In this document: piece after piece, positions 8,925 to 50,722 of the stretch
How positions within the stretch are numbered: position 1 is the stretch's first letter
Layout: each line of letters begins with the position of its first letter
Origin: a virus
Taxonomy: Duplodnaviria > Heunggongvirae > Uroviricota > Caudoviricetes
Virus record (IMG/VR): IMGVR_UViG_3300021400_000141
Location: 321,354-385,353 of that record
Reading direction: 5' to 3' (one strand)
DNA: 64,000 nucleotides
Notes under the pieces: generated by a model
What the model saw: the letters and a program-made list of their open reading frames with translations, nothing else
What the model was told of the DNA's origin: nothing
The model's database searches: none
Translations under genes and position numbers: made by a program

Positions 8925-8954
8925 CTTGACAAGACGGATTTAATATGCTATATT
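8925..8954 (+). promoter_or_regulatory. sigma70-type promoter (TTGACA, 18 nt, TATATT)
   Basis: cTTGACAagacggatttaatatgcTATATTg upstream of queC. Confidence 0.5.
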
Positions 8955-8985
8955 GATGAAAAACAACATCAACAAAAGGTCTCAT

Positions 8986-9933: not shown

Positions 9934-9951
9934 CAACAAAGAGAATTTGAA

Positions 9952-12827: not shown

Positions 12828-12829
12828 CC

Positions 12830-12858
12830 TTGACAAGAATTAAATTAAATACTATATT
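12830..12858 (+). promoter_or_regulatory. sigma70-type promoter (TTGACA, 17 nt, TATATT)
   Basis: cTTGACAagaattaaattaaatacTATATTtt upstream of lemA. Confidence 0.5.
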
Positions 12859-12893
12859 TTAACCAAAACATTAAAACAAAGAGGTAAATAACC

Positions 12894-13490
12894 ATGTCTA
12901 CGGGCAAAATCATCCTTATCGTTCTCGCTGTTCTCGCATTCATCGGCGGAGCAACGCTTATCGGACAGTTCAACGGCATCCGCACCCTTGAAAACGGTGT
13001 GCAGATGAGCTGGGCCAATGTCGAAAACCAGTATCAGCGTCGTTACGACCTTATCCCGAACATCGTCGAATCGGTGAAGGGTGAGGCAAACTTTGAAAAG
13101 AGCACGCTCACCGAAGTCATCGAAGCACGCAGCCGCATGGGTGGCGTGATGAAGATGGATGAAAGCATGCTTGGCGACGAACGTGCAATGAAGCGCTTCC
13201 AGGAAGCTCAGAACAGCCTCGGTGGTGCATTGCAGCGTCTCATGATGCTTACTGAAAACTATCCCAACTTGAAGGCTAATGCCGCTTTCCGAGACTTGCG
13301 TGTTGAACTTGAAGGATGCGAAAACCGTATCGCCGAAGCAAGGCGTCAGTTCAACAAGTCTGTCAACGACTTGAACAACAAGGTAAGAACTTTCCCTGGC
13401 GTTCTCGTTGCTGGTATCGCAGGCGTGACCCCGAAGGTTCCGTTCTCCGCAGTGACTGGTGCTGATGTAGCACCGACCGTGAAGTTCTAA
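12894..13490 (+). CDS. lemA: LemA family protein
   Basis: N-terminal TM helix, then QYQRRYDLIPNIVESVKG, LTEVIEARSRM and RQFNKSVNDLNNKVRTFPGVLVAGIAG, the typical LemA signature. Confidence 0.8.
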   Translation: MSTGKIILIVLAVLAFIGGATLIGQFNGIRTLENGVQMSWANVENQYQRRYDLIPNIVESVKGEANFEKSTLTEVIEARSRMGGVMKMDESMLGDERAMKRFQEAQNSLGGALQRLMMLTENYPNLKANAAFRDLRVELEGCENRIAEARRQFNKSVNDLNNKVRTFPGVLVAGIAGVTPKVPFSAVTGADVAPTVKF

Positions 13491-14047: not shown

Positions 14048-14593
14048 ATGAGTCTCATCGACAGATTGTGGGAAGGTGTATGTGAAGGTGGGCCGTCTAT
14101 CCTAGCTTGTCATGAACGGATAATCGGCGGAATGGTCTATGCCTTTAAGAAGGCGTCTGAAACTGAAATAACTTTGGACGTATATTACGGAAATGACCAC
14201 TACGATTTTGGTGTGGTGTTCAGGTCGGTTGTAAATGACAAGGAGCACTCCCCGTGTGTGACCATGAAGTACCCACCGAAGGAAAAATACGAGTTCATCC
14301 ATGTTCAGGATGCTGTTGGAATGATTGGAACATCATTGCTTGGTGACTACAAGGAATGGAGTGATGATTCCATTAAACAGTGGGTTGAAAGCATGATTGA
14401 TGAGTACGGGAAGCTTGCCTCTTGGAGAATATGGGTTTCCAAGAAGTTCAAGGAACTGGAATCATCCCTGCTTGAACCTGACTGGAATATCGTAGCGGCA
14501 ATCACTAAGGAGATAAAAGCTCATTCCGACCTGATATTCAAACATGGACATGTCACATGTGAGGAAAGTCCCGAAGACGAGAGAGAGGGATAA
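14048..14593 (+). CDS. hypothetical protein immediately upstream of cas3
   Basis: RBS ggaggt; its stop lies 4 nt before the cas3 ATG, so probably co-transcribed. Confidence 0.5.
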   Translation: MSLIDRLWEGVCEGGPSILACHERIIGGMVYAFKKASETEITLDVYYGNDHYDFGVVFRSVVNDKEHSPCVTMKYPPKEKYEFIHVQDAVGMIGTSLLGDYKEWSDDSIKQWVESMIDEYGKLASWRIWVSKKFKELESSLLEPDWNIVAAITKEIKAHSDLIFKHGHVTCEESPEDEREG

Positions 14594-14597
14594 AAGC

Positions 14598-16838
14598 ATG
14601 AACCCGAACGACTTATTGGCGAAAAGTGATGGCACTACATTGATAGCTCATTCCAGAGCAGTAGCTGACATGGCAAAGAGAATTGCTGAAACACTTGGCT
14701 TCGATAGTGTGTTAACCGCACTATGCTATGTGGCCGGGCTTTTGCATGATATCGGCAAAGCAATATCACCTTTTCAGGAAATACTGCGTGAAAATGAGCA
14801 TGGGCCTGGTAAATTGAGCGACGATTGCAATGCTCGTCACAGTGCAGTAAGCGGATGGTTTATGGCTAACCATGCAGCAACGTTCGATAAGATGGTTCCT
14901 GGTGTGAATGGCAGAGCTAGTGAAATCTTGTGCCGTGCCGTTACATGGCACCACAAGCCATATTTTCCTGTTGAGGAAAGTCGGTTTGCGTACGATGAAC
15001 AGTTCGATGCAGAAATCAAGTCGTTTGTTGATGCACTCGTTGATAACCTTGATTGGAGCATTAGTTCTGACGATGATTTTGATTTTTCTGGTGGAGATTT
15101 TTCCTATTTCTATACAAGAAATCTTTCTGGTAAAATCAATTCTCGAATTCATGCTGTGAGGTCGGTAGTCATTCGTGCTGACTATCTTGTAAGTGGAGGT
15201 GTTTCCGAATACTCGATAAGTAAACTTGCACCTATTGATATTGATTCTATCGCATGCCCGATTGATTTCAATGCAGAGCGATTTGTATTTCAGCGAAACG
15301 AAATTGCAAAGAAAGCAATGGAATCTGGCAAGAAAACTGTTGTGATAAATGCACCCGCAGGTTTTGGAAAAACTATTATTGGTCTGCTTGCAGGACTTCA
15401 TCGAGGTGAAAAGATTTACTGGGTTGTTCCAAGAAACGTTATTGCCGAAGAAGTGTATCGTTCTATTTCGGATTTGCTGTCGATGTTGAATGTATCGGAA
15501 ACATATTCGTTGAACATGATTTTTGGCGGCAAGGTTCAGCTTGGCCCAGAAAATGCCGACATTACAGTAACTAACATTGATGCTATCTTGCAGCCGATGG
15601 GTCAACATGGAAATATGGGTTTGCAGTGTGATATGCTGAGTGGAACAATGATATTTGACGAATATCATGAACTGGTAGGAAATAGCCCGATGTGGTCGGC
15701 ATTTCTTATCCTCATGGCTGCAAGAATGGAGGCGAACGGTAGAAATATCCTCGTTTCGGCAACACCGTTAGATATCATGTCGTGTTTGAAAGTGAACCCT
15801 GATGATGTTCTGTATCTTCCAGGTAAGAACATCCATTACCAAGCACAGCATTCAGTTCCATACCATATCGAAACTGCTGACAGCATGCCCTCCTTGGTTA
15901 GTGGAGATAGCTTCGCTATCAGCAACTGCATTTCACGTGTGCAGAAAGTACAGTGTGGAATTATGTTTCATAGCAAGTATACTGACGAAGACAAAAACGG
16001 CATCATATCCCAATTATTGAATTCGTTCGGAAAGGGAAAGACCAATGTAGTCGATGGGGTATCAGCAGGCCCGATTTTGAGCACTTCGCTTGACCTATCG
16101 TGTACACATTTGTATGAAAGTGTATGCAGTCCTATGGATTCCATGCAGCGAATTGGGCGGTGTAACCGCTTTGGAAACAAAAGTGGATGCTCGGTAACCT
16201 TCGTGACTGGAAGCGTTCCAGGTGAACGAGATTATGTGGATATGAAATTTACGACGGAGCTTCGTTCAGAATGGTGTGACACTATCCGTCGGGAATTCAA
16301 TAAAAAAGATATTACTCTTGATGAAATGTATCGTTGCTACGATAAGTTCATGGAAGAAAATGCTGCCCGCATTAAAAGGTGGATGGTTGGTCTGCAACAA
16401 GAGAGCATTAACTGCCTCGTTACAAGCTGTGCCCCATGTGTCTTTGAAGTTGCTTTGCCGAAAAAGAACAAAGGCAAAAGCGGTGGTACTATACGAAACC
16501 CAGAACCAAATATGTACTACATAGTCCCATCTGCCGATGAGAAGACCTACTATGGGCCTTTCAGTATCGACATTGCCACGGCAAACGGGCCGAAGTATGG
16601 TAGAATATTCAGACAGGTGAACAACTTAACGGAATACGAAAAGGCCAAGCAGGCATCTCCTGCTCTTGTGAACGGAACGACAGAATATCTCTCTGGCGGA
16701 ACCCGTAAGAAACGGTGGTATAAGGAGAATGCAGACAAGTTGGCTAGAAACTCGGAAAGCCCGTTTGTCGTATCTGCTAGGTACATGACATACGACTCGT
16801 TCAATGGAGTTGTATTCAACTCGAATATGGAAGACTAA
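14598..16838 (+). CDS. cas3: Cas3 HD-nuclease/helicase (no Cas2 fusion)
   Basis: N-terminal HD motifs (LIAHSRAV, LLHDIGKA); helicase Walker A INAPAGFGKT, DExH box MIFDEYHE, SAT-like LVSATPL, motif VI QRIGRCNRFG. Confidence 0.85.
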   Translation: MNPNDLLAKSDGTTLIAHSRAVADMAKRIAETLGFDSVLTALCYVAGLLHDIGKAISPFQEILRENEHGPGKLSDDCNARHSAVSGWFMANHAATFDKMVPGVNGRASEILCRAVTWHHKPYFPVEESRFAYDEQFDAEIKSFVDALVDNLDWSISSDDDFDFSGGDFSYFYTRNLSGKINSRIHAVRSVVIRADYLVSGGVSEYSISKLAPIDIDSIACPIDFNAERFVFQRNEIAKKAMESGKKTVVINAPAGFGKTIIGLLAGLHRGEKIYWVVPRNVIAEEVYRSISDLLSMLNVSETYSLNMIFGGKVQLGPENADITVTNIDAILQPMGQHGNMGLQCDMLSGTMIFDEYHELVGNSPMWSAFLILMAARMEANGRNILVSATPLDIMSCLKVNPDDVLYLPGKNIHYQAQHSVPYHIETADSMPSLVSGDSFAISNCISRVQKVQCGIMFHSKYTDEDKNGIISQLLNSFGKGKTNVVDGVSAGPILSTSLDLSCTHLYESVCSPMDSMQRIGRCNRFGNKSGCSVTFVTGSVPGERDYVDMKFTTELRSEWCDTIRREFNKKDITLDEMYRCYDKFMEENAARIKRWMVGLQQESINCLVTSCAPCVFEVALPKKNKGKSGGTIRNPEPNMYYIVPSADEKTYYGPFSIDIATANGPKYGRIFRQVNNLTEYEKAKQASPALVNGTTEYLSGGTRKKRWYKENADKLARNSESPFVVSARYMTYDSFNGVVFNSNMED

Positions 16839-19966: not shown

Positions 19967-21214
19967 TTATGATGCTTTCCGTTCTTGTATATTGAAGTGT
20001 TCCATCACCATGTCTTGCGTGATGTGGATTTCCTTCTGTTCGCTGTCGGGGCCCATGAACATTGCGTTATGGAGCAACTCTTCGACGATTGAACGGAGGC
20101 CACGAGCGCCCGTATGACGGTCGATTGTCAGCCTTGCGATTTCACCAAGGGCTTCTTCGTCGAGCGTGAGTTTAATGCCGTCAAGTTCGAGGAGTTTTGT
20201 GTACTGCTTGATGATGGCATTCTTCGGTTCGGTCAGGATGCGACGGAGGGCTTCTTCGTCAAGTTCATCGAGTGCGACGGTAACGGGAAGTCGTCCCACA
20301 AGTTCAGGCATGAGGCCGAACTTCACGAGGTCATCGGGTTCGCACTTATCGAAGAGTTCACTGAGGCTCTTCTTTTCCTTATTGTGGATGGTGGCACCGA
20401 ATCCCATGCCGCCACTCTCGGTACGCTCGGAAATGATGTCTTCCAGCCCCTCGAACGCTCCACCGCAGATGAAGAGGATGTTCCTCGTGTCAATTGAAAT
20501 AAGTTTCTGCTCGGGGTGCTTTCGTCCGCCCTGCGGATTGATTTTAGCCTCGGTTCCTTCCAGGAGTTTCAACAGTCCCTGCTGAACACCTTCGCCAGAA
20601 ACGTCTCGGGTGATAGATGGGTTGGAACTCTTCCTTGCAATCTTGTCGATTTCGTCGAGGAAGATGATGCCGTGTTCAGCGGCGATAGCGTCCATGTCTG
20701 CAGCTTGGAGGAGACGGGAGATGATGCTGTCCACATCTTCGCCCACGTAGCCTGCCTCGGTAAGGACGGTTGCATCGGCGATTGCGAACGGCACGTCGAG
20801 CATCTTGGCGATAGCCCTTGCGAGCATCGTCTTTCCGCAACCAGTCGGGCCCACGAGGAGGACATTAGACTTCTCGATTTCCACATCGTCGTCCGAACGG
20901 ATTGCGTTGTAGTCCAGACGCTTGTAATGGTTGTACACGGCGATAGAAAGGGCTTCCTTGGCCTTGTCCTGACCGATTACGAACTGGTCGAGGTGTTCCT
21001 TAATCTTGTGCGGGGATGGCAGAGCAGCGGCTTTCTTTGGCTTAGGTTCCTTGAGCATGGGGGATTTTGCACCCATCATGCTACTGGCGAGCTTGACGCA
21101 GTCTTCGCAAATCGTTGCGTACATTCCGCTTACGGCCTTCGCTGTAGGTGCAAGGGGCTTTCCGCAGAAGCTGCAAGCAGGGGTAGTTTCTTGTGTAGGT
21201 TTTTTAGTTGCCAT
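19967..21214 (-). CDS. clpX: ATP-dependent Clp protease ATP-binding subunit ClpX
   Basis: N-terminal zinc-binding domain CSFCGK...CEDC; Walker A LLVGPTGCGKT; IIFLDEIDKIARK; full-length ClpX architecture (415 aa). Confidence 0.9.
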   Translation of the reverse strand: MATKKPTQETTPACSFCGKPLAPTAKAVSGMYATICEDCVKLASSMMGAKSPMLKEPKPKKAAALPSPHKIKEHLDQFVIGQDKAKEALSIAVYNHYKRLDYNAIRSDDDVEIEKSNVLLVGPTGCGKTMLARAIAKMLDVPFAIADATVLTEAGYVGEDVDSIISRLLQAADMDAIAAEHGIIFLDEIDKIARKSSNPSITRDVSGEGVQQGLLKLLEGTEAKINPQGGRKHPEQKLISIDTRNILFICGGAFEGLEDIISERTESGGMGFGATIHNKEKKSLSELFDKCEPDDLVKFGLMPELVGRLPVTVALDELDEEALRRILTEPKNAIIKQYTKLLELDGIKLTLDEEALGEIARLTIDRHTGARGLRSIVEELLHNAMFMGPDSEQKEIHITQDMVMEHFNIQERKAS

Positions 21215-22784: not shown

Positions 22785-23066
22785 ATGCTGATACGTGACA
22801 AGGACGGAAACGAGAGAATCGCATACTCCGAGGACTTCCAGGATACATCAATAACGCTGACTCCGCAGGAGTGGCAGGAACTGTGCGCTCTGCTGGAATA
22901 CCGTAAGCAGACGAAGCCGTGTGCCTTCGCCAAAGCGAACATGAAGATATACGAGAAGCTGATGACCAACCCTCCGTTATTGCGAGATGGTGTGACTGAA
23001 ATAAAGACGGAGGACACGATGGCCAATAACCAAGCAAATCAAGGAGATTCACATGAAAACAATTAG
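22785..23066 (+). CDS. hypothetical protein
   Basis: RBS aaaaagga; 93 aa. Confidence 0.45.
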   Translation: MLIRDKDGNERIAYSEDFQDTSITLTPQEWQELCALLEYRKQTKPCAFAKANMKIYEKLMTNPPLLRDGVTEIKTEDTMANNQANQGDSHENN

Positions 23067-23784
23067 AAATTCCGTATTCGAAACCAATTCATCTTCAATG
23101 CACGCAATCGTTATACCGAGGGATAGCGTGCACAACGAGACACCTGTCGATGTCTGTATGGACGGGAGCATGGATTTTAGCTCGAGAATGCTTATCGAGA
23201 GGAAGCTGCCTGACGAAAAGGCTAGCTACTGCTTTCTCATTATCATGAAATACTGGTGCGACAAGTTTACTTGTGGCAAGTGGTCTGAGAAAAAGAAGGG
23301 CTACCTGAACATTACTGATGAGGAAATCAAGCGTAATGATGAGATTATAGCAGCGTTTCGCAAGTTCATTACGTACATGAAGAAGAGTTTTAAAAGGCAC
23401 TGGGCAATCAACCTTACAATCAAGAATTACACAGTAAAATCTATGAAAAACGGAGCATACATCTCTCCGAAGGATTGGGCTACTAACGGATGCTATGGAC
23501 ATGATGTCTTAAACTCTATCCTTATGAAACGGTTGCTCGAAAGGATTGACGAGATTACCGAGCCAGATGCAGACTTGTCTGTGCTGAGAGCGGATGATAA
23601 TACATGGAATTCATTCCTGGACTTCTGTGACCTTGCTTCCTTTATTCTGGACCCGAATGCGGTTATCATCCAGCATACTGACGAGTATGACGAATATGAC
23701 CTTAAGCTTATGCAGAAGATGGTAATTGACTATGTAAAGAAAAACAAGGGCATGTGCTTCGTTGACTGGCCTGCAGGCGGCTAA
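23053..23784 (+). CDS. paralog family protein with N-terminus MKTIRxxVFETNSSSxH (member 4)
   Basis: MKTIRNSVFETNSSSMHAI; RBS caaggag. Confidence 0.6.
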   Translation: MKTIRNSVFETNSSSMHAIVIPRDSVHNETPVDVCMDGSMDFSSRMLIERKLPDEKASYCFLIIMKYWCDKFTCGKWSEKKKGYLNITDEEIKRNDEIIAAFRKFITYMKKSFKRHWAINLTIKNYTVKSMKNGAYISPKDWATNGCYGHDVLNSILMKRLLERIDEITEPDADLSVLRADDNTWNSFLDFCDLASFILDPNAVIIQHTDEYDEYDLKLMQKMVIDYVKKNKGMCFVDWPAGG

Positions 23785-23850
23785 CCTCTTGACAGCCAGT
23801 TTTAAATTTACTATATTTCAAACTAACAAACAATCAACAAAGAAGGACCT

Positions 23851-24531
23851 ATGTCTTTTATCAAAAACAAATTCCGTGCGCTGTACATGGCAGCGTTTAT
23901 CATCTTCACCGTCATCTTCACCATCATGATGCCTGACGGCCATACGGCGATGTGGTTCGCAATGCTCACCGCACTTCTGGGAACGATATCCACCGTGATG
24001 TTCGCACAGAAGAACATCTGGGCTTACGTACCCAGTTTCGTGTTCAACTTCATGTATATGTACATCTGTTGGGAAAGCCGTCTGTGGCTTGAATTTGGCG
24101 AATACATTTTCTACAACGTGACTATGGTTTATGGTGTCTACGCATGGTACAAGCAGCTCGAAAAGGACAAGACTCACGTTATCCCGAAGAGGCTGTCCCC
24201 CAAGGCGTGGGTCGCTTCCATTATTGCCACCATCATCCTTACGGTCGGCTTCGGTACATTCGATAAGTTTGTTCTGGACGGTGCAGTTCCGTACATGGAT
24301 GCGTTAAGCATCAGCTTCACTGTTATCGCCCAGATTCTCATTGTCACTTGTTACCGTGAACAGTGGTTCTTCTGGTTTGTTCTTGACGCAATTTCCATTG
24401 TTACGTTCGCACTGATTGGCGAATGGGCAATGGTTGCAATGTATGTGTGCTGGTTCATCAACACCATCTACGGATGGATTGAATGGTCTCATAACGAGAA
24501 GAAACTCGAAACGGACACCGTGGAGGATTAA
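23851..24531 (+). CDS. pnuC: nicotinamide riboside transporter PnuC
   Basis: multi-TM 226-aa protein; VYGVYAWYKQ matches the PnuC IYGWYAW signature; stop overlaps the nadR ATG. Confidence 0.75.
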   Translation: MSFIKNKFRALYMAAFIIFTVIFTIMMPDGHTAMWFAMLTALLGTISTVMFAQKNIWAYVPSFVFNFMYMYICWESRLWLEFGEYIFYNVTMVYGVYAWYKQLEKDKTHVIPKRLSPKAWVASIIATIILTVGFGTFDKFVLDGAVPYMDALSISFTVIAQILIVTCYREQWFFWFVLDAISIVTFALIGEWAMVAMYVCWFINTIYGWIEWSHNEKKLETDTVED

Positions 24532-25680
24532 ATGTTTGGCGACGTGATTAACAACATCTGCGGTGCGCCTCGTGAATACGGGGTTGTGCTCGGGTCTTTC
24601 AGCCCGATGCACACAGGTCATCTTGACCTCGTAATGGCAGCGAAGAAGCTCTGCTCTAAGGGCGCTATCATTGCCGTTTGCGGTCTTGATGGTGACCGTG
24701 GCACGAGAATCGGTCTCCCTATTGAACGCCGCTATGAAATCATCAAGAAGATGTTTGAAGGCGACCCGCTTGTACACGTCGTCATGATGAAGGATAACGA
24801 TATCGGCATCGCAGGTTACATGGACAAGTGGGCTGAATGGTTGGAAGCCCTAAGCTATAAAATAGCTGAAGTCGTGTATGGCAATGCTGATATTAGCAAG
24901 AGAAAGTGCATGAAATTGCTTCAACGCACGACTGTCTTTACTGGTGAAGAGTCGTACAGACAGGCAATCATGTCGTTGGTGATGAAGGGCCCTAATGTGT
25001 TCCAGTTGTCCAGGAAATTGAATACGATTTCTGCGACAAAGATACGAAAGCAACCGATGAAGTATTGGGACGAAATCATTGGGTATGAGTTCAAGGCTCA
25101 GTTCGCCAAGCGTGTCTTGATTATCGGTACGGCATCGGAAGGAAAGTCTACTCTCACGAAAGACCTTGCACGATATTTCGATGCGGGTTGCACCGAGGAG
25201 TATGGACACACGTATATTGCCGATGTGAATGGTGAAACCCCACATCCAGACGATACCAAGCTGACCTACGATGACTACATCCGTTTCCTTGACGAACAGT
25301 ATCGTGTCAACTCGGCAAGCTGGCATAAGGTTAACATCTGTGACAGTGACGCAATGACGACGCTCATGTATGCCAAATACTATTCGATGGATGACAGGTA
25401 TGCCATCACCGAAGAAGATTACAAGCGTATCGAAGCGCATGCAAAGTTCCTGAAGTACGATGCAATCTTTGTTCTTCCACCGAAGAAGGACAGTTGGGTG
25501 CAGGACGGCAGCAGGGATTGCCTCACCAACAGTTTCGAAGACCGTAAGAAGCAGTACCAGGTATTGATGAGCATTATCGGACAGCACTACTGCACCGAAG
25601 ATATCGTTTACCTGAACGGCACTTATCACGAGAACTTCATGAGGGCCAGAGACAAAATCAAGAGTTTGCTTTCTGACTAG
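24532..25680 (+). CDS. nadR: bifunctional NMN adenylyltransferase / ribosylnicotinamide kinase (NadR-like, no HTH)
   Basis: N-terminal HxGH nucleotidyltransferase motif GSFSPMHTGH; C-terminal Walker A GTASEGKST. Confidence 0.75.
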   Translation: MFGDVINNICGAPREYGVVLGSFSPMHTGHLDLVMAAKKLCSKGAIIAVCGLDGDRGTRIGLPIERRYEIIKKMFEGDPLVHVVMMKDNDIGIAGYMDKWAEWLEALSYKIAEVVYGNADISKRKCMKLLQRTTVFTGEESYRQAIMSLVMKGPNVFQLSRKLNTISATKIRKQPMKYWDEIIGYEFKAQFAKRVLIIGTASEGKSTLTKDLARYFDAGCTEEYGHTYIADVNGETPHPDDTKLTYDDYIRFLDEQYRVNSASWHKVNICDSDAMTTLMYAKYYSMDDRYAITEEDYKRIEAHAKFLKYDAIFVLPPKKDSWVQDGSRDCLTNSFEDRKKQYQVLMSIIGQHYCTEDIVYLNGTYHENFMRARDKIKSLLSD

Positions 25681-25692
25681 GCTGAATGGACT

Positions 25693-25767
25693 CGGGTAGT
25701 ATCCCAACTGGTAGAGGAATGGGACTTAAAATCCTTACAGGTGTGGGTTCGAATCCCACCTGCCCGA
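25693..25767 (+). tRNA. tRNA, anticodon loop cTTAAaa (anticodon UAA, Leu-type) in a short-variable-arm scaffold
   Basis: acceptor cgggtag/ctgcccg (one G-U pair), U8, D-loop with GG, T-arm gtggg-TTCGAAT-cccac, discriminator A; anticodon stem only 4 bp. Confidence 0.5.
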
Positions 25768-25786
25768 TTAAAAGTAAGGTGTAATT

Positions 25787-26980
25787 ATGATTGAGATACA
25801 GGGAAAGTTTAATACGGCCAAGGTGTTCACCGACAATATCGAGCCCGAGGCTTACACACAGTTGTTGAACATGATGTGCCAGTGCTGGGCTAAGGACATG
25901 CAGGTTCGCGTCATGCCCGACGTACATGCTGGAAAGGGGTGTACGGTTGGAACCACTATGACCATCAAGGACAAGGTTGTTCCTAACCTGGTCGGGGTGG
26001 ACATTGGGTGTGGTATGCTTGTCGCCAAGTTGAAAGACCGTTCGGTTGATTTCGACAAGTTGGACAAGGCTATCCGTGAAAGGATTCCATCTGGTAAGAG
26101 CCACCGTGAAAGCAAGCATTCGATGGCAAAGGACTTTCCTATCGAGGATATGATTGTCTACAAGGAAGGGAAGATGGAGTATACCGAGCTGTTGTCGCTT
26201 GGGTCACTCGGCGGTGGCAACCACTTCATCGAACTGGACAAGGATTCCCACGGCAATCTGTACATCGTAATCCACTCTGGTTCCCGTCATCTTGGGTTGG
26301 CAACATGCGATTACTGGCAGGGACTTGCAATCGACGAATGCAATGACCTTACGCAGCAGCGTGGGGCCATTATCGCCAAGTACAAGCGTGAGGGACGTGA
26401 AAACGAGCTTGAAGCGGCGTTGGCAAGCATCCCTCATTTCCCGCCACCGAAGGAACTGTCTTACCTCACTGGCAAGTCGTTCGACGGATATCTGCATGAC
26501 ATGGCGTTGGCACAGGAGTTTGCAACACGCAACCGCGAAGCGATGCTTGAAGAGATTGTCAGGGCGCTCCGCCTGCATGTTGTGGACAAGTTCTGCACAT
26601 TGCATAACTACATCGACTTGAAGCACATGATACTCCGCAAGGGTTCTGTATCGGCTCAGGAAGGTGAGCGTCTTATCGTTCCTTTGAACATGAGGGATGG
26701 TTCTCTTATCTGCACTGGTAAGGGAAACCCTGACTGGAACTTCTCGGCTCCTCACGGTGCAGGACGCAAGATGTCCCGTTCAAAGGCTAAGGAAAGCATC
26801 TCCCTTGAAGCGTACCAGAAGGCCATGCGTGGCATCTACACGACTTGTGTAAACAAATCTACTTTGGATGAATCCCCGATGGCATACAAGCCGTCCAAGG
26901 AAATAATCGAGAACATCAAGGATAGTTGCGATGTTGTAGATACTATCAAGCCTGTGTACAACTTCAAGGCATCTGACTGA
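25787..26980 (+). CDS. rtcB: RtcB-family RNA 3'-phosphate/2',3'-cyclic-phosphate ligase
   Basis: MPDVHAGKGCTVGT, GCGM, SLGGGNHF, HNYI and APHGAGR motifs in RtcB order. Confidence 0.9.
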   Translation: MIEIQGKFNTAKVFTDNIEPEAYTQLLNMMCQCWAKDMQVRVMPDVHAGKGCTVGTTMTIKDKVVPNLVGVDIGCGMLVAKLKDRSVDFDKLDKAIRERIPSGKSHRESKHSMAKDFPIEDMIVYKEGKMEYTELLSLGSLGGGNHFIELDKDSHGNLYIVIHSGSRHLGLATCDYWQGLAIDECNDLTQQRGAIIAKYKREGRENELEAALASIPHFPPPKELSYLTGKSFDGYLHDMALAQEFATRNREAMLEEIVRALRLHVVDKFCTLHNYIDLKHMILRKGSVSAQEGERLIVPLNMRDGSLICTGKGNPDWNFSAPHGAGRKMSRSKAKESISLEAYQKAMRGIYTTCVNKSTLDESPMAYKPSKEIIENIKDSCDVVDTIKPVYNFKASD

Positions 26981-26988
26981 GGTGGAAT

Positions 26989-27648
26989 ATGAAAAATCGA
27001 AAGTCGCTCTACAACGATTCTAGCATACAGCTTATCCGTGAGGATGACCACTATGTGCTTGTCACTAAGGAAAAGAAAGTCAAGATAGAGAATCGTACTT
27101 ATGACGAAGACCAGAAAGCCATGCTTGAAGGAGCTACGGTTGATGCGTGGTGCAAGAAATTCGATGTCGTGTATAGTGTATTCGATGTACCAGCAGTCAA
27201 TGGAAAGCTTTTTGTCTATACCACCAATGGAAACTTCTCCAGACGGGTAATGACAATGGGTGAACACGAGGATTTCGCCAAGATTGTCATTAACGAGTAC
27301 AAGCTGCCGTATATGTTCTATGGTGAAATGAAGGATGCGGACGAGTCTGGATATGTCATGATGTTCGGGTGTAGGATTGGCGATGATGATTTCGTTTCAG
27401 ATGACTTCTGCGAAAGGATGGTACTTGAAACATCCAATCCTAAGGTCAAGTGGCATTTATATTGCTTTGACGAGCATGACGAGCCTGAGAGCGATGTTGT
27501 CGATGAGATATTCGACAAGTACCGTCTCAAAGAAGACAAGATGATGGGCCTGTATATGTCCAACGACAACTGTGGATGCCACTGGGCTTTTCTCGAATTT
27601 CCGAACTGGAAGATAATTCCAGGCAGTGCATATTCTAAACGGAGGTAA
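26989..27648 (+). CDS. hypothetical protein
   Basis: RBS gaggtgg; 219 aa; acidic C-terminal half. Confidence 0.5.
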   Translation: MKNRKSLYNDSSIQLIREDDHYVLVTKEKKVKIENRTYDEDQKAMLEGATVDAWCKKFDVVYSVFDVPAVNGKLFVYTTNGNFSRRVMTMGEHEDFAKIVINEYKLPYMFYGEMKDADESGYVMMFGCRIGDDDFVSDDFCERMVLETSNPKVKWHLYCFDEHDEPESDVVDEIFDKYRLKEDKMMGLYMSNDNCGCHWAFLEFPNWKIIPGSAYSKRR

Positions 27649-27650
27649 CT

Positions 27651-27938
27651 ATGGTTATCAAGAAAATCGACCTTACATCTGACAGGTTCGCCGAACAGAA
27701 AATCGTAATTCAATTGAATTACAGCGAGCTGACTAAGATTGCAAACGCAGTCCACAACATTAAAGTCAAGGACAAGGATGATGCTTGGCTCAAATGGGAA
27801 TTTGCTGCACTCCGTGACCTGTGCCATGATGAGGGATTTATGACCGATTTCGCCCCGGCCACCATCTTTCCTAGAATAATGAAAGAACTCAAGGCTGTTG
27901 AAAAAAAGCAGAATAAAAAGGAGACAACCAATGAATAA
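27651..27938 (+). CDS. hypothetical protein
   Basis: RBS acggagg; 95 aa. Confidence 0.5.
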   Translation: MVIKKIDLTSDRFAEQKIVIQLNYSELTKIANAVHNIKVKDKDDAWLKWEFAALRDLCHDEGFMTDFAPATIFPRIMKELKAVEKKQNKKETTNE

Positions 27939-28098
27939 AGAAGATGCCGTCTTTTTTGCTGGACAGATGGAAGATTTTCTGGATATTCCATCTATGTTCT
28001 GCGAAAAAATCGAGAAAATGCTGACCGAAGGAAAGGCAATGGAAGTGTGCGAGTACATTGTACGCCGTCGCAGGGAACTTGTCAAGAAAAAGGATTAA
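27931..28098 (+). CDS. small hypothetical protein (55 aa)
   Basis: ATG after aaaaaggag, overlapping the previous stop. Confidence 0.4.
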   Translation: MNKEDAVFFAGQMEDFLDIPSMFCEKIEKMLTEGKAMEVCEYIVRRRRELVKKKD

Positions 28099-28100
28099 AT

Positions 28101-28301
28101 ATGAACGTAGAAGAACTCAAGGCCAAGCTCTGTGAACGTATTTCCAATACGGAACTGGACAAGACATTCAGGGTGGTCGTGGCCCGAAAGAAGAAGCGTG
28201 GTGGATATGATATCTACCCCTGTGTCAAGGATGTAGAACTGGCATACGTTCCGATTCCAGGTGAAACTAACCCAGTTGCCGCAATCGTATTTGAGGACTA
28301 A
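28101..28301 (+). CDS. small hypothetical protein
   Basis: ATG after aaaaagga. Confidence 0.4.
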   Translation: MNVEELKAKLCERISNTELDKTFRVVVARKKKRGGYDIYPCVKDVELAYVPIPGETNPVAAIVFED

Positions 28302-28302
28302 T

Positions 28303-28551
28303 ATGGCTGACCGTAATGAATTTCATAATGACCTTGAAGTGTTTTGCTCTGCACAGGAACACAAGGGAATGGTTCTTGAACTGATTAGGGTGTACGGCGA
28401 GTCTGTCACCTTGAAGGATGTACTGGATAGCATAAACTACCAGATGGACAAGTACGAGAACCTTCTGTTCAATCATCATCTTTTGAAACCCGCAATCAAC
28501 CTTGCTACTGCGGTCATGTCGTCTATCAACGACGTGAAGGAAACCAAATGA
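28303..28551 (+). CDS. small hypothetical protein
   Basis: ATG after ttgagga; tiles exactly with neighbours. Confidence 0.4.
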   Translation: MADRNEFHNDLEVFCSAQEHKGMVLELIRVYGESVTLKDVLDSINYQMDKYENLLFNHHLLKPAINLATAVMSSINDVKETK

Positions 28552-28718
28552 AAATCTACAATGTGTTCCAAGTATCGGGCATGGGCTACCACATGTATAT
28601 GGCCACTTGTAAGACACGGGAGGCTGCTAACAAGTTTGTTGCAAAACTTTGTAAGAAGCATCCTGACATCTACAAGAAATCTTACTTGAAGGTAAGGGTT
28701 GGAAAAATCTTGGAGTAG
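28548..28718 (+). CDS. small hypothetical protein (56 aa)
   Basis: below the ORF-track cutoff; ATGA overlap with the previous stop; fills an otherwise empty 170-bp gap. Confidence 0.35.
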   Translation: MKIYNVFQVSGMGYHMYMATCKTREAANKFVAKLCKKHPDIYKKSYLKVRVGKILE

Positions 28719-28721
28719 GCC

Positions 28722-28913
28722 ATGTGTAAGTATTGCGAACAGTTGGATGGACTTGGCTGCGGTGAAGACTTCACGGATGACGATAGTTGGACTGACCGTT
28801 TTCATCTGCGTCGAGATAGCGACGGTAAATATCGTATCGAATGCTATGCCGACCAAAGTTCACCAATCAATTTCTGCCCTAAGTGTGGGAGACCGTTATG
28901 CGACCCGAAATAA
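28722..28913 (+). CDS. small zinc-ribbon protein
   Basis: CKYCEQ ... CPKCGRPLC cysteine pairs. Confidence 0.45.
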   Translation: MCKYCEQLDGLGCGEDFTDDDSWTDRFHLRRDSDGKYRIECYADQSSPINFCPKCGRPLCDPK

Positions 28914-29164
28914 AGGAACTACTACAAGATAGACTTGAGTCGTTCGTGACTGAGTATCTGAATGATGCCGCAAAGAATGCCGATGGAGGATGCTGCGGCG
29001 TTCACATAACCAACCCAGAGATGCGATACTACAAGGGATATATCGACGGCATGTGCTGTGCCTTGAATTTCAAGGGATGGGGACTTGAAGGCGAATACTG
29101 GGTTGTGCGTGATGCTCGTAACCGTATTGTAATCAAATGTAAGAACGAATGGGAAGAGGAATAA
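28898..29164 (+). CDS. hypothetical protein
   Basis: ATG start (the track start 28883 is a GTG); 88 aa. Confidence 0.4.
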   Translation: MRPEIKELLQDRLESFVTEYLNDAAKNADGGCCGVHITNPEMRYYKGYIDGMCCALNFKGWGLEGEYWVVRDARNRIVIKCKNEWEEE

Positions 29165-29165
29165 A

Positions 29166-29747
29166 ATGAGAAGACTGTTTATTATCAGAAAGGATTTGCA
29201 GCTGCAGCCAGGTAAGCTTGCAGCTATGGTGGCCCACTGTGCCGAAGGGTACTGGCTAAACGTATTTAAGTATCTGAGCGTAGTCGAGGACAACGAATAC
29301 GATACACTGCCAGTAGAAACTCCGAACGACCCTGATTACTGGATGCGTTATCGTCATCCTGCTGTATTTGAGGCGGCGAAAGCTGCTCACGAACGGGGTG
29401 AGAAAACCTTTAAGTTCAAGGCGGAAAACTCCCGTCCTACAAAGACGATTTCATTTGAAATCCCGAAAGAAATCTGGGATGGCTACATCAATGATATCTT
29501 CACGAAGACAATCTGCGAGGCAAAGAATCTTAACCATCTAATGAAGGTGGAAGAGGTTGCCACGGAACTTGGTCTTGTCCCGCTCGTTGACTACGGGTAT
29601 ATCGACGATGTTTGCAAGACCGATTTGACCCCAGAATTCACAGACGAGAACGGTGTGGGCCGTTGCCGTGTTGGCATCTGGTTCAAACCGCTTCCTGACG
29701 ATATCAGCCATAAGCTGAGCAAGAAGTACCAGCTTTACAAGGGGTAA
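29166..29747 (+). CDS. PTH2-type peptidyl-tRNA hydrolase-like protein
   Basis: N-terminal LFIIRKDLQLQPGKLAAMVAHCAEG resembles the PTH2 motif VRxDLxMxxGKxAAQxxHAA; longer than canonical PTH2. Confidence 0.5.
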   Translation: MRRLFIIRKDLQLQPGKLAAMVAHCAEGYWLNVFKYLSVVEDNEYDTLPVETPNDPDYWMRYRHPAVFEAAKAAHERGEKTFKFKAENSRPTKTISFEIPKEIWDGYINDIFTKTICEAKNLNHLMKVEEVATELGLVPLVDYGYIDDVCKTDLTPEFTDENGVGRCRVGIWFKPLPDDISHKLSKKYQLYKG

Positions 29748-29749
29748 AC

Positions 29750-30034
29750 ATGAAGGATACTAGGATAGAAGACTTGGTCAAGGCCATCATGGAGGCGACC
29801 AGTGTGAAGGAAGTTGTTGACGCTGACGGAAACCGTATGCACGTAGGTTCAAACCGTCTCCATCTGAGTGTTACCGATGATGTCGATATCATTATAGAGA
29901 CGGATATGGGGCCTATGTATGACGTGTGGATTCAGAACCATACCGAGGGAGAGGGATGCACAGTCGCCCGTACTGAGGACTTGGAGAAAGTAGCGGCATT
30001 CATCCTAAGCGTGTTCAAACTCTGTGGAAAATAG
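29750..30034 (+). CDS. hypothetical protein
   Basis: RBS aagggg; 94 aa. Confidence 0.45.
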   Translation: MKDTRIEDLVKAIMEATSVKEVVDADGNRMHVGSNRLHLSVTDDVDIIIETDMGPMYDVWIQNHTEGEGCTVARTEDLEKVAAFILSVFKLCGK

Positions 30035-30037
30035 CCT

Positions 30038-30352
30038 ATGCATAGCCGTCAAGACCTAATTCAATTAGAACTGACAGAAGATGAAGCTCAGGAAATAATA
30101 AACTCCCTGCCCGAGAATAATTGGGCGGGGATGAGTGTTAAGACCAAGTTGAAATCCCTGTTGGATAAAAAGAAACAGCGGGATAGCCATCCCCACAAAC
30201 TTGCCGATGAATACGAGGCAATGAAAAACTGCCCGTATCGTGGAGACTGGCACTACTGTTGCAGATGTGAATTTGATTATATCTGCACTGGTTCTAACCA
30301 TTACGATAAGAACATGGTGAAGAAACACATTGAAGAAAACAGAGGCAAATAA
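30038..30352 (+). CDS. hypothetical protein
   Basis: 104 aa; last plus-strand gene before the strand switch. Confidence 0.45.
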   Translation: MHSRQDLIQLELTEDEAQEIINSLPENNWAGMSVKTKLKSLLDKKKQRDSHPHKLADEYEAMKNCPYRGDWHYCCRCEFDYICTGSNHYDKNMVKKHIEENRGK

Positions 30353-30634
30353 CTAGGCCTTCTTGTTTTCTTTTACACCGAAGCGCTGCATCTGGTATTC
30401 ACGCAGCGCTTTTCTTTCTATACGGTTCTTTCGCATCTGGAGTTCAGCGTTCTTGCCGTGGCCAAGTACCCCAAGCACGAAGGAAAGGTCGGATTTGGAG
30501 TTGCGACGGCTGTTCATCATCTTCTTTACAAGATGGATTGCATAGTCGTATTCTGTGTCGAACACGAGGTTATGCTGAGCATCAACATGATAGGGGTTGC
30601 CGATAAGGTCTAACTGGTGTTTTGCTTTTTTCAT
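30353..30634 (-). CDS. hypothetical protein
   Basis: start moved to the internal ATG with RBS aaagga downstream of the minus-strand promoter at 30663-30691; the track start is a TTG inside the -10. Confidence 0.45.
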   Translation of the reverse strand: MKKAKHQLDLIGNPYHVDAQHNLVFDTEYDYAIHLVKKMMNSRRNSKSDLSFVLGVLGHGKNAELQMRKNRIERKALREYQMQRFGVKENKKA

Positions 30635-30662
30635 GGTATGTCCTTTTGAAGTTTCTATACAC

Positions 30663-30691
30663 AATATAGAAACTTAAATGCGATTTGTCAA
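30663..30691 (-). promoter_or_regulatory. sigma70-type promoter (TTGACA, 17 nt, TATATT), minus strand
   Basis: minus strand reads ctaTTGACAaatcgcatttaagtttcTATATTgtg. Confidence 0.5.
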
Positions 30692-30698
30692 TAGTTAA

Positions 30699-31298
30699 TT
30701 AAATAATTCCGACAGTTTCCTTGATAGCTTCAAGGTTGCGGTCAATTCGCTGCATGTATTGGTGAATCATTGTGATGGCATTGTACTTCTTGCTTTGTAC
30801 GGCGCCAGGGTTGAATTGAAGTTTCCATGCTTCGGCAGGGTCATCCGCCTTGTTGAACTGGATTACTTCCCATGACATCATCTGCATCGCCTGACGCATA
30901 TCATGGTATTCTCCACCCAAATGGAATTCGTTTAGTCGGTATCCTAGTTCCACCATCATACGGGTTCCGTTCGGGGTATTTGGAAGGTGGTGTTGATGCA
31001 CATTAGCCATTCGGAAAGGTTCAAGCATGCTGTCCAGCTTTTCGATGATACGCTGGATTTCCTGCTTGTTTACGCTAACTTCCTCAGACGGTTCCTCCAA
31101 GGCTGAACCCTCTGGTTTCTCGTCAATTTCTCCGCTAAGAGCGTCCTGCATATCTGACGGGTTTTCATCGGCTATGAGATTGGGTTCGCCTTCGTGCGTT
31201 GCTTCGAACAGGGAAACAACGGCATCTTCCTTCTCTTTACTCAAACCGAGGTTGTGAACGCTTTCCAAGAACAGTTTTTTGCGATACATAGTGAACAC
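30699..31298 (-). CDS. hypothetical protein
   Basis: 199-aa ORF, minus-strand tiling. Confidence 0.5.
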   Translation of the reverse strand: MFTMYRKKLFLESVHNLGLSKEKEDAVVSLFEATHEGEPNLIADENPSDMQDALSGEIDEKPEGSALEEPSEEVSVNKQEIQRIIEKLDSMLEPFRMANVHQHHLPNTPNGTRMMVELGYRLNEFHLGGEYHDMRQAMQMMSWEVIQFNKADDPAEAWKLQFNPGAVQSKKYNAITMIHQYMQRIDRNLEAIKETVGII

Positions 31299-31480: not shown

Positions 31481-32428
31481 TTATTCCACCTTGCTCATGT
31501 TGATTCCCGAGAAGTTCGGGGTGATAGTGTTGGCTTCTGAACCAGGGAACTTGCCGTTCCACTTTTCGAGACGGGCCATAGTTTCTTCATGACGCCATGC
31601 GCTCTGCTGAATTGCATAGTTGGCGGCGATAGCCTTGTTCTTTGCAATCATTGCCTTAGCTTCTGCTTCTGCGGTCACGATGGTAGCCTCAGCGTTTTTC
31701 TTGGCGATTTCAAGTTCGTTTTCAGCCTTGTTGAGAGCATTGCGGTAGGTTGCCGAGTCAGCCCTCAACTGAGCCTGTTGAGCAACGACCTTCTTTTCGT
31801 TGATTGCACGTTCGATTTCCACGTCAGCCTTTGCAGTCTTTTCCTTCTGGGTCTTAATCATCGTTTCCTTAATCTGGTTGTCGAAGTCTTTTGTCCAGTC
31901 CCAGTTGGTAATGTTGACATCCTGAATGGTAATCGGGAACTTTGCACACTTCTTTTCCATCAAAGCCTTCACTTCATCCGCAATCTTGTCGGTTTCCTTG
32001 GTAAGGTCATAGATGGAATACTTGCCGATGACAACCTTCAATGAAGTTTTCATGTTGGACTTGAAGAAGCTTTCCATAGAGCTTCTGCTATAGTTGCGGA
32101 CGAAGTTTTCGGCTTCATCTTCGTTGAACACATAAATGATGGAGGTGGAAACACCAACCGTCTGCATGTCCTTCGTGATTGCACCGTCATCGCCGACTTC
32201 GTATGTAAAGTCGTCCTTCTGCGGAGAAAGGTCGATGGTGGTGATAGACTGGATGAACGGAACCTTCAATGTGTAACCGTTGCCACGAGGAATCGTGCCC
32301 GAAATAGAGCCTGCCGTCTTGACGACACCGACTTCGGTCGGTTCCACGCAAGTGATAGAACCGAGCGCAAGGGCGAAGATTGCCACGACTGCGCAAATGA
32401 TGATGATGATTTTGGTATTACTGTTCAT
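31481..32428 (-). CDS. SPFH/band-7 domain membrane protein
   Basis: N-terminal TM helix, an EVGVVKT-type start of the SPFH domain, and a long coiled-coil Ala/Lys/Glu-rich C-terminus typical of the stomatin/HflK family. Confidence 0.6.
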   Translation of the reverse strand: MNSNTKIIIIICAVVAIFALALGSITCVEPTEVGVVKTAGSISGTIPRGNGYTLKVPFIQSITTIDLSPQKDDFTYEVGDDGAITKDMQTVGVSTSIIYVFNEDEAENFVRNYSRSSMESFFKSNMKTSLKVVIGKYSIYDLTKETDKIADEVKALMEKKCAKFPITIQDVNITNWDWTKDFDNQIKETMIKTQKEKTAKADVEIERAINEKKVVAQQAQLRADSATYRNALNKAENELEIAKKNAEATIVTAEAEAKAMIAKNKAIAANYAIQQSAWRHEETMARLEKWNGKFPGSEANTITPNFSGINMSKVE

Positions 32429-35944: not shown

Positions 35945-36257
35945 TTTTCTGCCTTGTCTTTTCTTTCTGGTATTCCCACTGTTGGAAGATTTCCTGTGGT
36001 GATTTGTGAGTGAAATTTAATTCTTTTTCCTTTTCGTCCAGTTCGAACTTGTACGCTAGGAAATGCTCGTGTTCTCGTTTCATCTGTTTGAACAGGCTGT
36101 CGGCGTTGTCTGCCATTATTTTTGCTACATGTTCCCAGAATTCGAGTTGGCTCATCGTAGGAACACCCTCTCTCAGGTACATCTTGAATGCAGCGTCGAT
36201 TTTCTCCTTGTATGAACCAAACGTGTTGGAGTATGCCTCGTTAATCTTATCTAGCAT
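35919..36257 (-). CDS. hypothetical protein
   Basis: 112 aa. Confidence 0.45.
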   Translation of the reverse strand: MLDKINEAYSNTFGSYKEKIDAAFKMYLREGVPTMSQLEFWEHVAKIMADNADSLFKQMKREHEHFLAYKFELDEKEKELNFTHKSPQEIFQQWEYQKEKTRQKNDTNRREI

Positions 36258-37057
36258 GGTTGTTCCCCCTTTGTCAACTTAATTCGTTCAATGCTGTACT
36301 TGACCTGCTCGGCAGATATTTCGCTGCCAAGGTACTGCATGCCTAATGCGACGGCACCGACAGCGGTTGTACCTGTGCCTATGAACGGGTCGAACACCAC
36401 GGTTTCCTTCTCTGGTGGAGCATACAGTTCCAACAGGGATGTCACCAGCTTGGTGCTGAATGCGGCCTTGTTGAGATTGTTCTTTCCGTCGTTGTTGGGA
36501 GCCTCGATAAAGTTGTAGAACGGGGAGTACATCTTCTGCCCAGTCGGCCTGACAGAAGACACCTTCTTGTTGGCCTTGAACGTCTTGAACTCGCCCGAGC
36601 GGGCGATGACATAGACGAACTCGCAGAGGCGTGTCGCCTTGTTCGGGGACTGGTTGTCAGGTAGCGCCGACTTCTTTTTCCATGTGATGACATCGGCGAT
36701 TGTAAACCCTTCCTGAATGATGCGGTTGAGCGCAAGGAACATCGCATTTGCGTTCTCGTTTCCGTAACTGGCGTTCCACAGGATTACACCGTTCGGTTTC
36801 AACACCTTGTCGAAACCCTTGAAACATTCCGCAACAAAGTCGCAATACTGGTCGTTGGTAAGGTTGTCGTCGTAGCCGTCGTATCTGGCGTAGGTGAACT
36901 CACCCTGCTTGGCATGAACCGTGTTTGTGTTGACCTTGGAGGAGCCCTTCTTGTTCGTGTTGTATGGAGGGGAGGTCAGGATTACATCGACGCAGCCCGC
37001 GTCCATCTCCTTCATGAGGTCCAGACAGTTCATGTTGTATATGGTATTAAATTCCAT
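36251..37057 (-). CDS. DNA methyltransferase (N6-adenine or N4-cytosine, beta class), orphan
   Basis: motif IV SPPY near the N-terminus and motif I DPFIGTGTTAVGA near the C-terminus; no adjacent endonuclease. Confidence 0.75.
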   Translation of the reverse strand: MEFNTIYNMNCLDLMKEMDAGCVDVILTSPPYNTNKKGSSKVNTNTVHAKQGEFTYARYDGYDDNLTNDQYCDFVAECFKGFDKVLKPNGVILWNASYGNENANAMFLALNRIIQEGFTIADVITWKKKSALPDNQSPNKATRLCEFVYVIARSGEFKTFKANKKVSSVRPTGQKMYSPFYNFIEAPNNDGKNNLNKAAFSTKLVTSLLELYAPPEKETVVFDPFIGTGTTAVGAVALGMQYLGSEISAEQVKYSIERIKLTKGEQPC

Positions 37058-50718: not shown

Positions 50719-50722
50719 CTAA

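Follow-up and report, generated by a model that had tools for sequence, protein, structure and literature searches.

A type I tRNA-Leu gene beside RtcB and a PTH2-fold homologue in a large uncultured tailed phage

Within the 64,000-nucleotide (nt) stretch of viral DNA analyzed here (hereafter the window), positions 25693–29747 belong to a block of accessory (host-takeover) genes in a large tailed phage that is uncultured. They carry, on the plus strand, a transfer RNA (tRNA) gene for leucine with the anticodon UAA, a gene for the RNA ligase RtcB and, further downstream, a gene for a homologue of PTH2-type peptidyl-tRNA hydrolases. All three are real but of known kinds. In the tRNA we have a true elongator, one that falls in the family of type I (short variable loop) tRNA-Leu, a kind that is known but little discussed. 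What had appeared to be an oddity is thereby removed, leaving a regular type I tRNA-Leu within a familiar phage translation-maintenance set, and short-arm tRNA-Leu emerges beyond Streptomyces and mitochondria as a coherent family found in phages of several host phyla and on chromosomes of Actinomycetota. From the gene content we consider it probable that this cluster, together with genes for the salvage of nicotinamide adenine dinucleotide (NAD+), serves to keep translation running during infection, be it under attack by defence nucleases or under infection stress, and that the tRNA would be processed and leucylated by the host.

The tRNA gene and the type I tRNA-Leu family

The tRNA gene occupies positions 25693–25767 (plus strand), as judged by ARAGORN, by Rfam and by alignment with its family. 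ARAGORN reports Leu(taa) at 25692–25768, whereas Rfam RF00005 matches 25693–25767 over the full length of the model (positions 1–71) with 50.7 bits (gathering score, 29; E=6e-8). The additional base that ARAGORN includes on each side represents an optional eighth U:A acceptor pair. An acceptor stem of 8 base pairs (bp), resembling that of tRNA-His or tRNA-Sec, was considered and set aside, and we adopted the 7-bp register of Rfam, which gives C1-G72 and the discriminator A73 and fits the family. In this register the D loop is AACUGGUAG, the D stem has 3 bp and a C13·A22 mismatch, the canonical elbow is complete (G18G19 and UUCGAAU) and the CCA end is not encoded. The anticodon loop has 7 nt (CUUAAAA), with U33 ahead of the anticodon UAA; shifted registers, with UUA as an ochre suppressor or with an enlarged loop, were rejected because the stem would break and because the open reading frames (ORFs) read through in genetic code 11. 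The variable loop consists of 6 nt (ACAGGU) ending in U48, the long arm is absent, and in the anticodon stem U27·U43 is a mismatch and G28·U42 a wobble. An earlier note on this DNA, made from the sequence alone, had pointed out the anticodon and discriminator, the missing long arm and the weak anticodon stem; each of these observations holds, and both predictors accept the fold that the note had proposed to have checked.

By anticodon (NAG or YAA for leucine) the gene is one for tRNA-Leu, and by its variable region, which falls within the 4–6 nt without a stem-loop of type I and far from the stem-loop of more than 10 nt of type II, it is of type I. All members of the identity set recognized by leucyl-tRNA synthetase (LeuRS) are present, namely A73, U8-A14, A15/U48, G18G19 and the 3-bp D stem with a 13·22 mismatch. 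A short tRNA-Leu(UAA) also stands upstream of RtcB in three related loci in IMG/VR, L001–L003. In these copies the anticodon is kept, the A31-U39 pair is replaced by G-C, the G28·U42 wobble is likewise replaced by G-C, and the variable loop has 5 nt. Compensatory changes in the stem combined with a retained UAA are the signature of a tRNA that is selected for its fold. The exact 28-mer of the anticodon arm of the window copy is absent from IMG/VR, the nearest relatives differing in the anticodon stem, and when 5,426 E. coli genomes were searched by blastn with the tRNA no match at E≤1e-3 emerged, which is uninformative given the size of the database and the shortness of the query.

To delimit the family we scanned IMG/VR with a pattern that combines the D-loop motif, the spacing imposed by a short variable loop and the T loop (CAACTGGYAGAG-N29-30-GTTCGAWTC). 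At least 119 contigs match it (loci L081–L199); the counts that follow, for viruses and for bacteria, are among the matches listed. ARAGORN assigned leucine anticodons to 121 of 126 viral tRNAs, all 74–80 nt long, and all six leucine anticodon types are represented (CAA 38, UAG 37, UAA 27, GAG 11, CAG 5 and AAG 3). When the viral copies were reduced to 111 unique sequences, 109 had a leucine anticodon, 108 had A73 and 108 had U48, and the variable loop had 5 nt in 102 and 6 nt in 9. The same pattern applied to bacterial contigs (one genome per species) yielded at least 120 matches (L203–L322), mainly in Actinomycetota (Mycobacterium, Amycolatopsis, Nocardia, Pseudonocardia and others). Leucine anticodons were found in 119 of 119 pattern-matching bacterial tRNAs and in 72 of 72 unique genome copies, so that the viral and genome copies taken together have leucine anticodons in 181 of 183 unique cases. 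The bacterial gene is mostly the sole tRNA gene in the fetched stretch (up to 8 kb), and often stands on long contigs, of hundreds of kilobases up to complete chromosomes; how widely the chromosomal copies are spread among taxa is, as obtained in this way, a lower bound and may be biased. A G1·U72 wobble, at the top of the acceptor stem, occurs in 39 of the 111 unique phage copies and in 11 of the 72 genome copies.

Compensatory change keeps the stems intact across the family: 70 sequences aligned with the window copy have changes on both sides in 18 of the 20 pairs, with a covariation score of 1.006 as compared with 0.22 for shuffled sequences and 0.13–0.19 for slid partners. (Note that the sequences had been pre-filtered for near-complete pairing, and the figure of 98.4% paired is therefore partly obtained by construction.) Cultured phages also carry type I tRNA-Leu, annotated plainly as tRNA-Leu: Pseudomonas phages ZC03 and ZC08, Enterococcus phage EFDG1 and its relatives, Prochlorococcus phage P-SSM7, cyanophage P-RSM6, and phages of Vibrio, Rhodococcus, Bacillus, Rhizobium and Myxococcus. 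In ZC03 (L200) and EFDG1 (L201) the type I tRNA-Leu stands beside a type II tRNA-Leu of the same phage, and in P-SSM7 (L202) a 73-nt tRNA-Leu reading UUA is followed directly by a tRNA ligase gene. In the searchable literature the term type I tRNA-Leu led only to the case of Streptomyces coelicolor (PMC6614811), and two broad reviews, on tRNA identity and on non-canonical tRNAs respectively, mention neither the phage nor the Streptomyces type I cases.

The window tRNA can be aligned end to end, except for the variable region, with type II tRNA-Leu(UAA) from E. coli (leuZ), from the jumbo phages L006, L009 and L037 and from cultured phages. The two types share the kind of anticodon loop, A73, U8-A14, A15, G18G19 and the 3-bp D stem with a 13·22 mismatch, and the D-loop motif AAYUGGUAGA is common to the window tRNA and type II tRNA-Leu, including E. 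coli leuZ. Unlike the type II molecules, the window tRNA has no variable stem-loop of 13–18 nt, the alignment showing a clean gap exactly there, and it has C13 rather than G13 and A59 rather than G59 in the T loop. Because C13 and A59 are common to all of the short copies, these form an old separate lineage and not the product of a recent deletion; in particular, an origin by recent loss of the arm from a type II tRNA-Leu of jumbo phages was rejected, since the type II copies do not have the family-specific C13 and A59. The C1-G72 pair of the clade to which the window copy belongs recurs in related jumbo phages, in their type II tRNA-Leu.

Departures from the usual tRNA shape also occur in the other direction. 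We found long-arm, class II-like tRNAs that by anticodon are Cys-GCA (L006:2695–2784, 90 nt), Gln-UUG and Asn-GUU (L011, at 2562–2651, 90 nt, and 10230–10315, 86 nt, respectively) and Met-CAU (L015:3849–3935, 87 nt), and P-SSM7 has an Asn-GUU tRNA of the same kind (L202:2425–2509, 85 nt). The Rfam scores of these Cys, Gln, Asn and Met tRNAs are 39–58 bits, and their presence in relatives and in P-SSM7 suggests a wider remodelling of tRNA shape in phages.

RtcB, the PTH2 homologue and the surrounding genes

The gene for RtcB (25787–26980, plus strand; 397 amino acids, aa) begins 19 nt after the tRNA and is preceded by the Shine-Dalgarno sequence AAGGTG. Its product matches Pfam PF01139 (E=3e-64) and PHROG 1075 (6e-134, over residues 1–397) and is 52% identical to the RtcB proteins of SPO1-like Bacillus phages and 35% identical to that of E. 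coli, with every known essential residue conserved. Specifically, D72 and C75 (E. coli D75 and C78), H146 (H168, next to N145, which corresponds to N167), H163 (H185) and H273 (H281) match the metal ligands, R167 (R189) and R327 (R341) match the essential arginines, and H323 (H337) matches the histidine that becomes guanylylated; we take these roles to be those assigned by mutagenesis in the Shuman laboratory. Alignment with Pyrococcus horikoshii RtcB agrees, placing the same residues at D95, C98, H203, H234 and H404. The ligase is thus predicted to be catalytically complete, and would join a 3'-phosphate or 2',3'-cyclic phosphate to a 5'-OH. RtcB is encoded in 692 phage records.

The last gene of the cluster (29166–29747, plus strand) encodes a 193-aa protein that, by its Pfam match and its structural model, is a predicted enzyme of the PTH2 fold with a lineage-specific insertion. 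The match to PF01981 (31.5 bits against a cut-off of 23) covers profile positions 4–115 over residues 4–191, and the N terminus has the motif RKDLxxxPGKLAAMxxH in common with solved Pth2 proteins. More than 2,000 metagenomic homologues of about 190 aa exist, on contigs of up to 455 kb, and K17, D142 and T152 are invariant in 24 aligned homologues. In alignments, K17, in the GK motif, and D142, in the D-x-G motif, both fall opposite the equivalent motifs of 1RLK and 1RZW, and we presume from archaeal Pth2 that this lysine and this aspartate have catalytic roles. An AlphaFold model built on the alignment of homologues had a mean predicted local distance difference test score of 91.6, and the top 13 Foldseek matches to it in the Protein Data Bank were all Pth2 proteins, with a probability of 1.00 and target-normalised template modelling scores of 0.66–0.75. 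The fold is shared with archaeal and eukaryotic Pth2 (1RLK, 3ERJ, 2ZV3, 1WN2 and 1XTY, and human Bit1, 1Q7S), as are the N-terminal RxDLxxxxGKxxAxxxH motif and the conserved aspartate of D-x-G. Unlike these solved proteins, to which it is 13–18% identical and which are compact single domains of about 115–120 residues, the window protein has 193 residues because of an insertion of about 65 (residues ~38–100) after the first helix. A minority of homologues (149–165 aa; P0065, P0072, P0077 and P0080), otherwise very similar, do without the insertion, which is therefore an optional module. A tblastn search with the PTH2 homologue against GenBank phage genomes gave no match. The earlier note had described a full RtcB directly after the tRNA and a PTH2-like hydrolase about 2 kb further on, and had asked whether active-site residues of the ligase were missing; the arrangement is as described, the hydrolase gene following at a distance of 2.2 kb on the same strand, after eight small ORFs, and no active-site residue is missing in comparison with the E. 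coli and P. horikoshii enzymes. The family matches of the tRNA, the ligase and the hydrolase all lie beyond chance level.

Immediately upstream of the tRNA are genes for a PnuC-type transporter of nicotinamide riboside or nicotinamide mononucleotide (NMN; 23851–24531, plus strand; 226 aa; PF04973, 2e-38) and for a 382-aa NadR-like protein that combines a cytidylyltransferase-like NMN adenylyltransferase with an AAA_28 kinase-like part (24532–25680, plus strand; PF01467 and PF13521). The latter ORF stops 12 nt ahead of the tRNA. PnuC and NadR make up a phage NAD+ salvage pair, which could offset host defences that deplete NAD+. Upstream of pnuC, at 23789–23817 (plus strand), the sequence TTGACA-17-TATATT is a sigma-70-like promoter candidate by consensus match only (11 of 12), and the stretch from it to the tRNA and RtcB genes showed no terminator-like site. 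It is possible that this candidate marks the start of a transcription unit that runs from PnuC and NadR through the tRNA and RtcB to PTH2.

RtcB is followed by a 219-aa ORF (26989–27648, plus strand) with no family match in Pfam or PHROG, and by seven tightly packed small ORFs of 55–95 aa (27651–29164, plus strand), called on an identical Logan contig at 27651–27938, 27931–28098, 28101–28301, 28303–28551, 28548–28718, 28722–28913 and 28898–29164. The small ORFs gave no Pfam match and one weak PHROG match; that at 28722–28913 has a CxxC...CxxC motif. The order PnuC-NadR-tRNA-RtcB is syntenic in L001–L003, where PnuC is 95–96% identical to that of the window. Of these three loci only L001, in which the run of seven small ORFs is conserved, keeps the whole order through PTH2; the 219-aa ORF is absent at this position in L001 and is thus a recent insertion or deletion. 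On a broader scale, a tRNA gene lies within 6 kb of RtcB in 51 of 80 RtcB-bearing viral loci, and in relatives of 230–415 kb RtcB abuts arrays of 11–16 tRNA genes, whereas a PTH2 homologue lies at most 6 kb from RtcB in only 3 of the 80 (L001, L011 and L013). The association of tRNA and ligase is recurrent, and that with PTH2 is loose.

A megablast search of positions 23000–31000 against GenBank phages returned only 40-nt fragments of RtcB, indicating that there is no close cultured relative. In IMG/VR, the RtcB of L001 (on a 175-kb contig) is 97% identical to that of the window, those of L002 and L003 are 93% identical, and remoter relatives on contigs of up to 415 kb are 61–66% identical; an identical RtcB in the same gene order occurs on Logan contigs from run SRR873599. 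The window is densely coding, in this region mainly on the plus strand, has a G+C content of 45.5% and has Shine-Dalgarno motifs upstream of 60 of its 96 ORFs (as compared with 23% at control positions); the G+C content and the Shine-Dalgarno use are the clues to the host considered here.

A second tRNA gene, for a canonical class I tRNA-Arg(CCG) with U1-A72, lies 25 kb away from the cluster at 50644–50718 (plus strand; ARAGORN, 50644–50719; Rfam, 57.1 bits), and reads CGG, the rarest arginine codon in the ORFs of the window (8.3%). Elsewhere in the window are genes for a 764-aa Cas3-like nuclease-helicase (14544–16838, plus strand) whose parts are an HD domain, a helicase core of the DEAD/ResIII kind and, at the C terminus, a Cas3-like domain; for QueC-like and radical-SAM proteins side by side (8953–10914, plus strand), possibly in a 7-deazaguanine pathway of DNA or tRNA modification; for a ClpX-like ATPase with a zinc finger (19967–21214, minus strand); for a TPM-phosphatase/LemA pair (12090–13490, plus strand); for an SPFH/Band 7 protein (31481–32428, minus strand); for an N6/N4 DNA methylase (36251–37057, minus strand); and for a UDP-galactopyranose mutase (7017–8270, plus strand). 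A metallophosphoesterase and an HD protein are also among the window's accessory genes, which are typical of large phages.

Charging with leucine and the role of the cluster

That a tRNA-Leu without a long arm can be charged was established in S. coelicolor, where type II isoacceptors are present alongside a type I tRNA-Leu(CAA) (Fan et al. 2019, NAR 47:6369, PMC6614811). Both the single LeuRS of that organism and human mitochondrial LeuRS leucylate the type I tRNA-Leu(CAA); the S. coelicolor enzyme charges its own type I tRNA-Leu but not mitochondrial tRNA-Leu (PMC6614811). The determinants of LeuRS are mainly A73 and the tertiary core, and deletion of the arm chiefly lowers affinity (PMC2377443). 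In S. coelicolor A73 was reported not to be the key LeuRS contact (PMC6614811).

tRNA genes, RtcB or Rnl ligases and PTH2 have been catalogued in jumbo phages, and were read there as serving to mend tRNAs cut by nucleases and to free ribosomes that cleaved peptidyl-tRNA has jammed (Iyer et al. 2021, PMC7824862). Protection and repair of the translation apparatus, in outline the reading of the earlier note, is a plausible role for the tRNA, RtcB and PTH2 of the window; this is the standard published inference, and it fits the data. In such a scheme the tRNA would be released by host RNase P and 3' processing from a polycistronic transcript, would receive its CCA end from the host CCA-adding enzyme, would be charged by host LeuRS through A73 and the D/T-loop core rather than through the anticodon or variable arm, and would then read UUA and UUG in phage mRNAs. 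Meanwhile RtcB would reseal tRNAs (or rRNA) cut by host ribonucleases that leave a 2',3'-cyclic phosphate and a 5'-OH, PTH2 would recycle peptidyl-tRNA dropped from stalled ribosomes, and PnuC and NadR would restore NAD+. Phage tRNAs have been found to evade tRNA-targeting defences and to rescue infection (PMC10264068, PMC11555353).

Several observations weigh against this account. The window tRNA has a variable loop of a length seen in 9 of the 111 unique viral copies and a weak anticodon stem (U·U and G·U), and PTH2 is, as noted above, seldom close to RtcB. UUA is the rarest leucine codon in the window (5.5% of leucine codons) and UUG makes up 19%, so that the demand for a tRNA-Leu(UAA) would be modest. 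Above all, E. coli LeuRS and one other Streptomyces LeuRS did not leucylate type I tRNA-Leu in vitro (PMC6614811), and charging in the host of this phage, whose DNA has 45.5% G+C and Shine-Dalgarno use, cannot be assumed. Charging is the main uncertainty: LeuRS of the E. coli type failed in vitro, yet type I tRNA-Leu is carried by phages that infect Proteobacteria, Firmicutes and cyanobacteria.

Plain codon supplementation, in which the tRNA tops up a scarce host isoacceptor while RtcB and PTH2 act independently and are co-located by chance, is an unlikely alternative, though one with several points in its favour. Rare codons are typically served by low-abundance host tRNAs, and both tRNAs of the phage match the rarest codons of their families (UUA, 5.5%; CGG, 8.3%). 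Moreover, the linkage to PTH2 is not conserved, the region is a mosaic of unrelated accessory genes, and the 219-aa ORF is an insertion or deletion relative to L001. What speaks against this explanation is the company that RtcB keeps: its position beside tRNA genes or arrays in 51 of 80 loci, including contigs of 230–415 kb, makes chance adjacency unlikely, and cyanophage P-SSM7, which is unrelated, again has a short tRNA-Leu(UAA) adjacent to an RNA ligase.

The short arm might instead matter for defence, if a tRNA-Leu of this shape were to dodge toxins or nucleases that read the long arm and so replace a destroyed host tRNA-Leu(UAA), with RtcB repairing the rest. No nuclease of bacteria is known that singles out the tRNA-Leu variable arm, which counts against the idea. 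In its support, type I copies occur in phages of Pseudomonas, Enterococcus, Vibrio and Prochlorococcus, often beside a type II copy in the same phage, phage tRNAs can rescue infection from tRNA-targeting defences (PMC10264068, PMC11555353), the toxin MenT3 relies on the tRNA-Ser variable loop (PMC11541572), and human SLFN11 cleaves type II tRNAs, to go by the title of reference 2 in PMC13056530. However, a preference for type II tRNAs, which we had considered for bacterial Schlafen proteins, does not appear in PMC13056530, where the one characterised bacterial Schlafen cuts class I tRNAs (Lys, Met, Ala, Val and Phe). Relatives of the phage also bear the opposite change, in the form of the class II-like Cys, Gln, Asn and Met tRNAs, and since Actinomycetota have type I tRNA-Leu as an ordinary gene of the chromosome, its architecture can do without a defence explanation. 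We therefore regard escape of this kind as decidedly unlikely. Much the same doubt attaches to a more general proposal, that type I tRNA-Leu is an architecture spread mainly by phages and functionally distinct from the all-type-II tRNA-Leu of the host, being invisible to toxins or charged in a non-standard manner, with RtcB taking part in the same replacement of the tRNA pool. Were it true, the long-arm Cys, Gln, Asn and Met tRNAs of the same phage group would point to a deliberate remodelling of tRNA shape.

Finally, the suggestion of the earlier note that this is a non-canonical tRNA, a decoy or a substrate mimic, which would then act outside translation to soak up an anticodon nuclease or a tRNA-binding defence protein, is not supported and is highly improbable: the weak anticodon stem (U27·U43 and G28·U42) and the unusual 6-nt variable loop would suit it, but what is an ordinary type I member with covarying stems lacks no canonical tRNA element and none of the LeuRS identity elements, the L001–L003 orthologues have a stronger stem with compensatory changes, the restriction to leucine in 181 of 183 unique copies with six anticodon types (among the matches listed) would be needless for a decoy, tRNAs of the same kind occur on chromosomal contigs of many Actinomycetota, and one member of the family has been leucylated experimentally (PMC6614811).

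Comparison with known systems

Like the window tRNA, the actinobacterial chromosomal copies (from Mycobacterium, Amycolatopsis, Nocardia and others) have the D loop CAACUGGYAGAG, a 3-bp D stem with C13·A22, U48, the T loop UUCGAAUC and A73. By its description, the S. coelicolor type I tRNA-Leu is alike in joining a leucine anticodon to a short variable loop. Unlike the actinobacterial type I molecules, the window copy is phage-borne, has the anticodon UAA and C1-G72, and has a variable loop of 6 rather than 5 nt. Animal mitochondrial tRNA-Leu(UUR) has the type I architecture and a UAA-type anticodon, as does the window tRNA, and is charged by a bacterial-type LeuRS; its D/T-loop core is degenerate, whereas the elbow of the window tRNA is fully canonical.

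In phage T4, the enzymes Pnkp and Rnl1 counter the anticodon nuclease PrrC. The set in the window differs from that of T4 in having RtcB in place of the ATP-dependent Rnl1/Pnkp pair, and it differs from the sets of jumbo phages in having a single tRNA gene rather than an array beside RtcB. It nevertheless resembles both T4 Pnkp/Rnl1 and the jumbo-phage sets (PMC7824862) in that tRNA genes lie near an RNA ligase and a PTH2-type hydrolase is encoded in the same genome, and the chemistry of RtcB suits the ends that metal-independent RNases leave, namely a 2',3'-cyclic phosphate and a 5'-OH.

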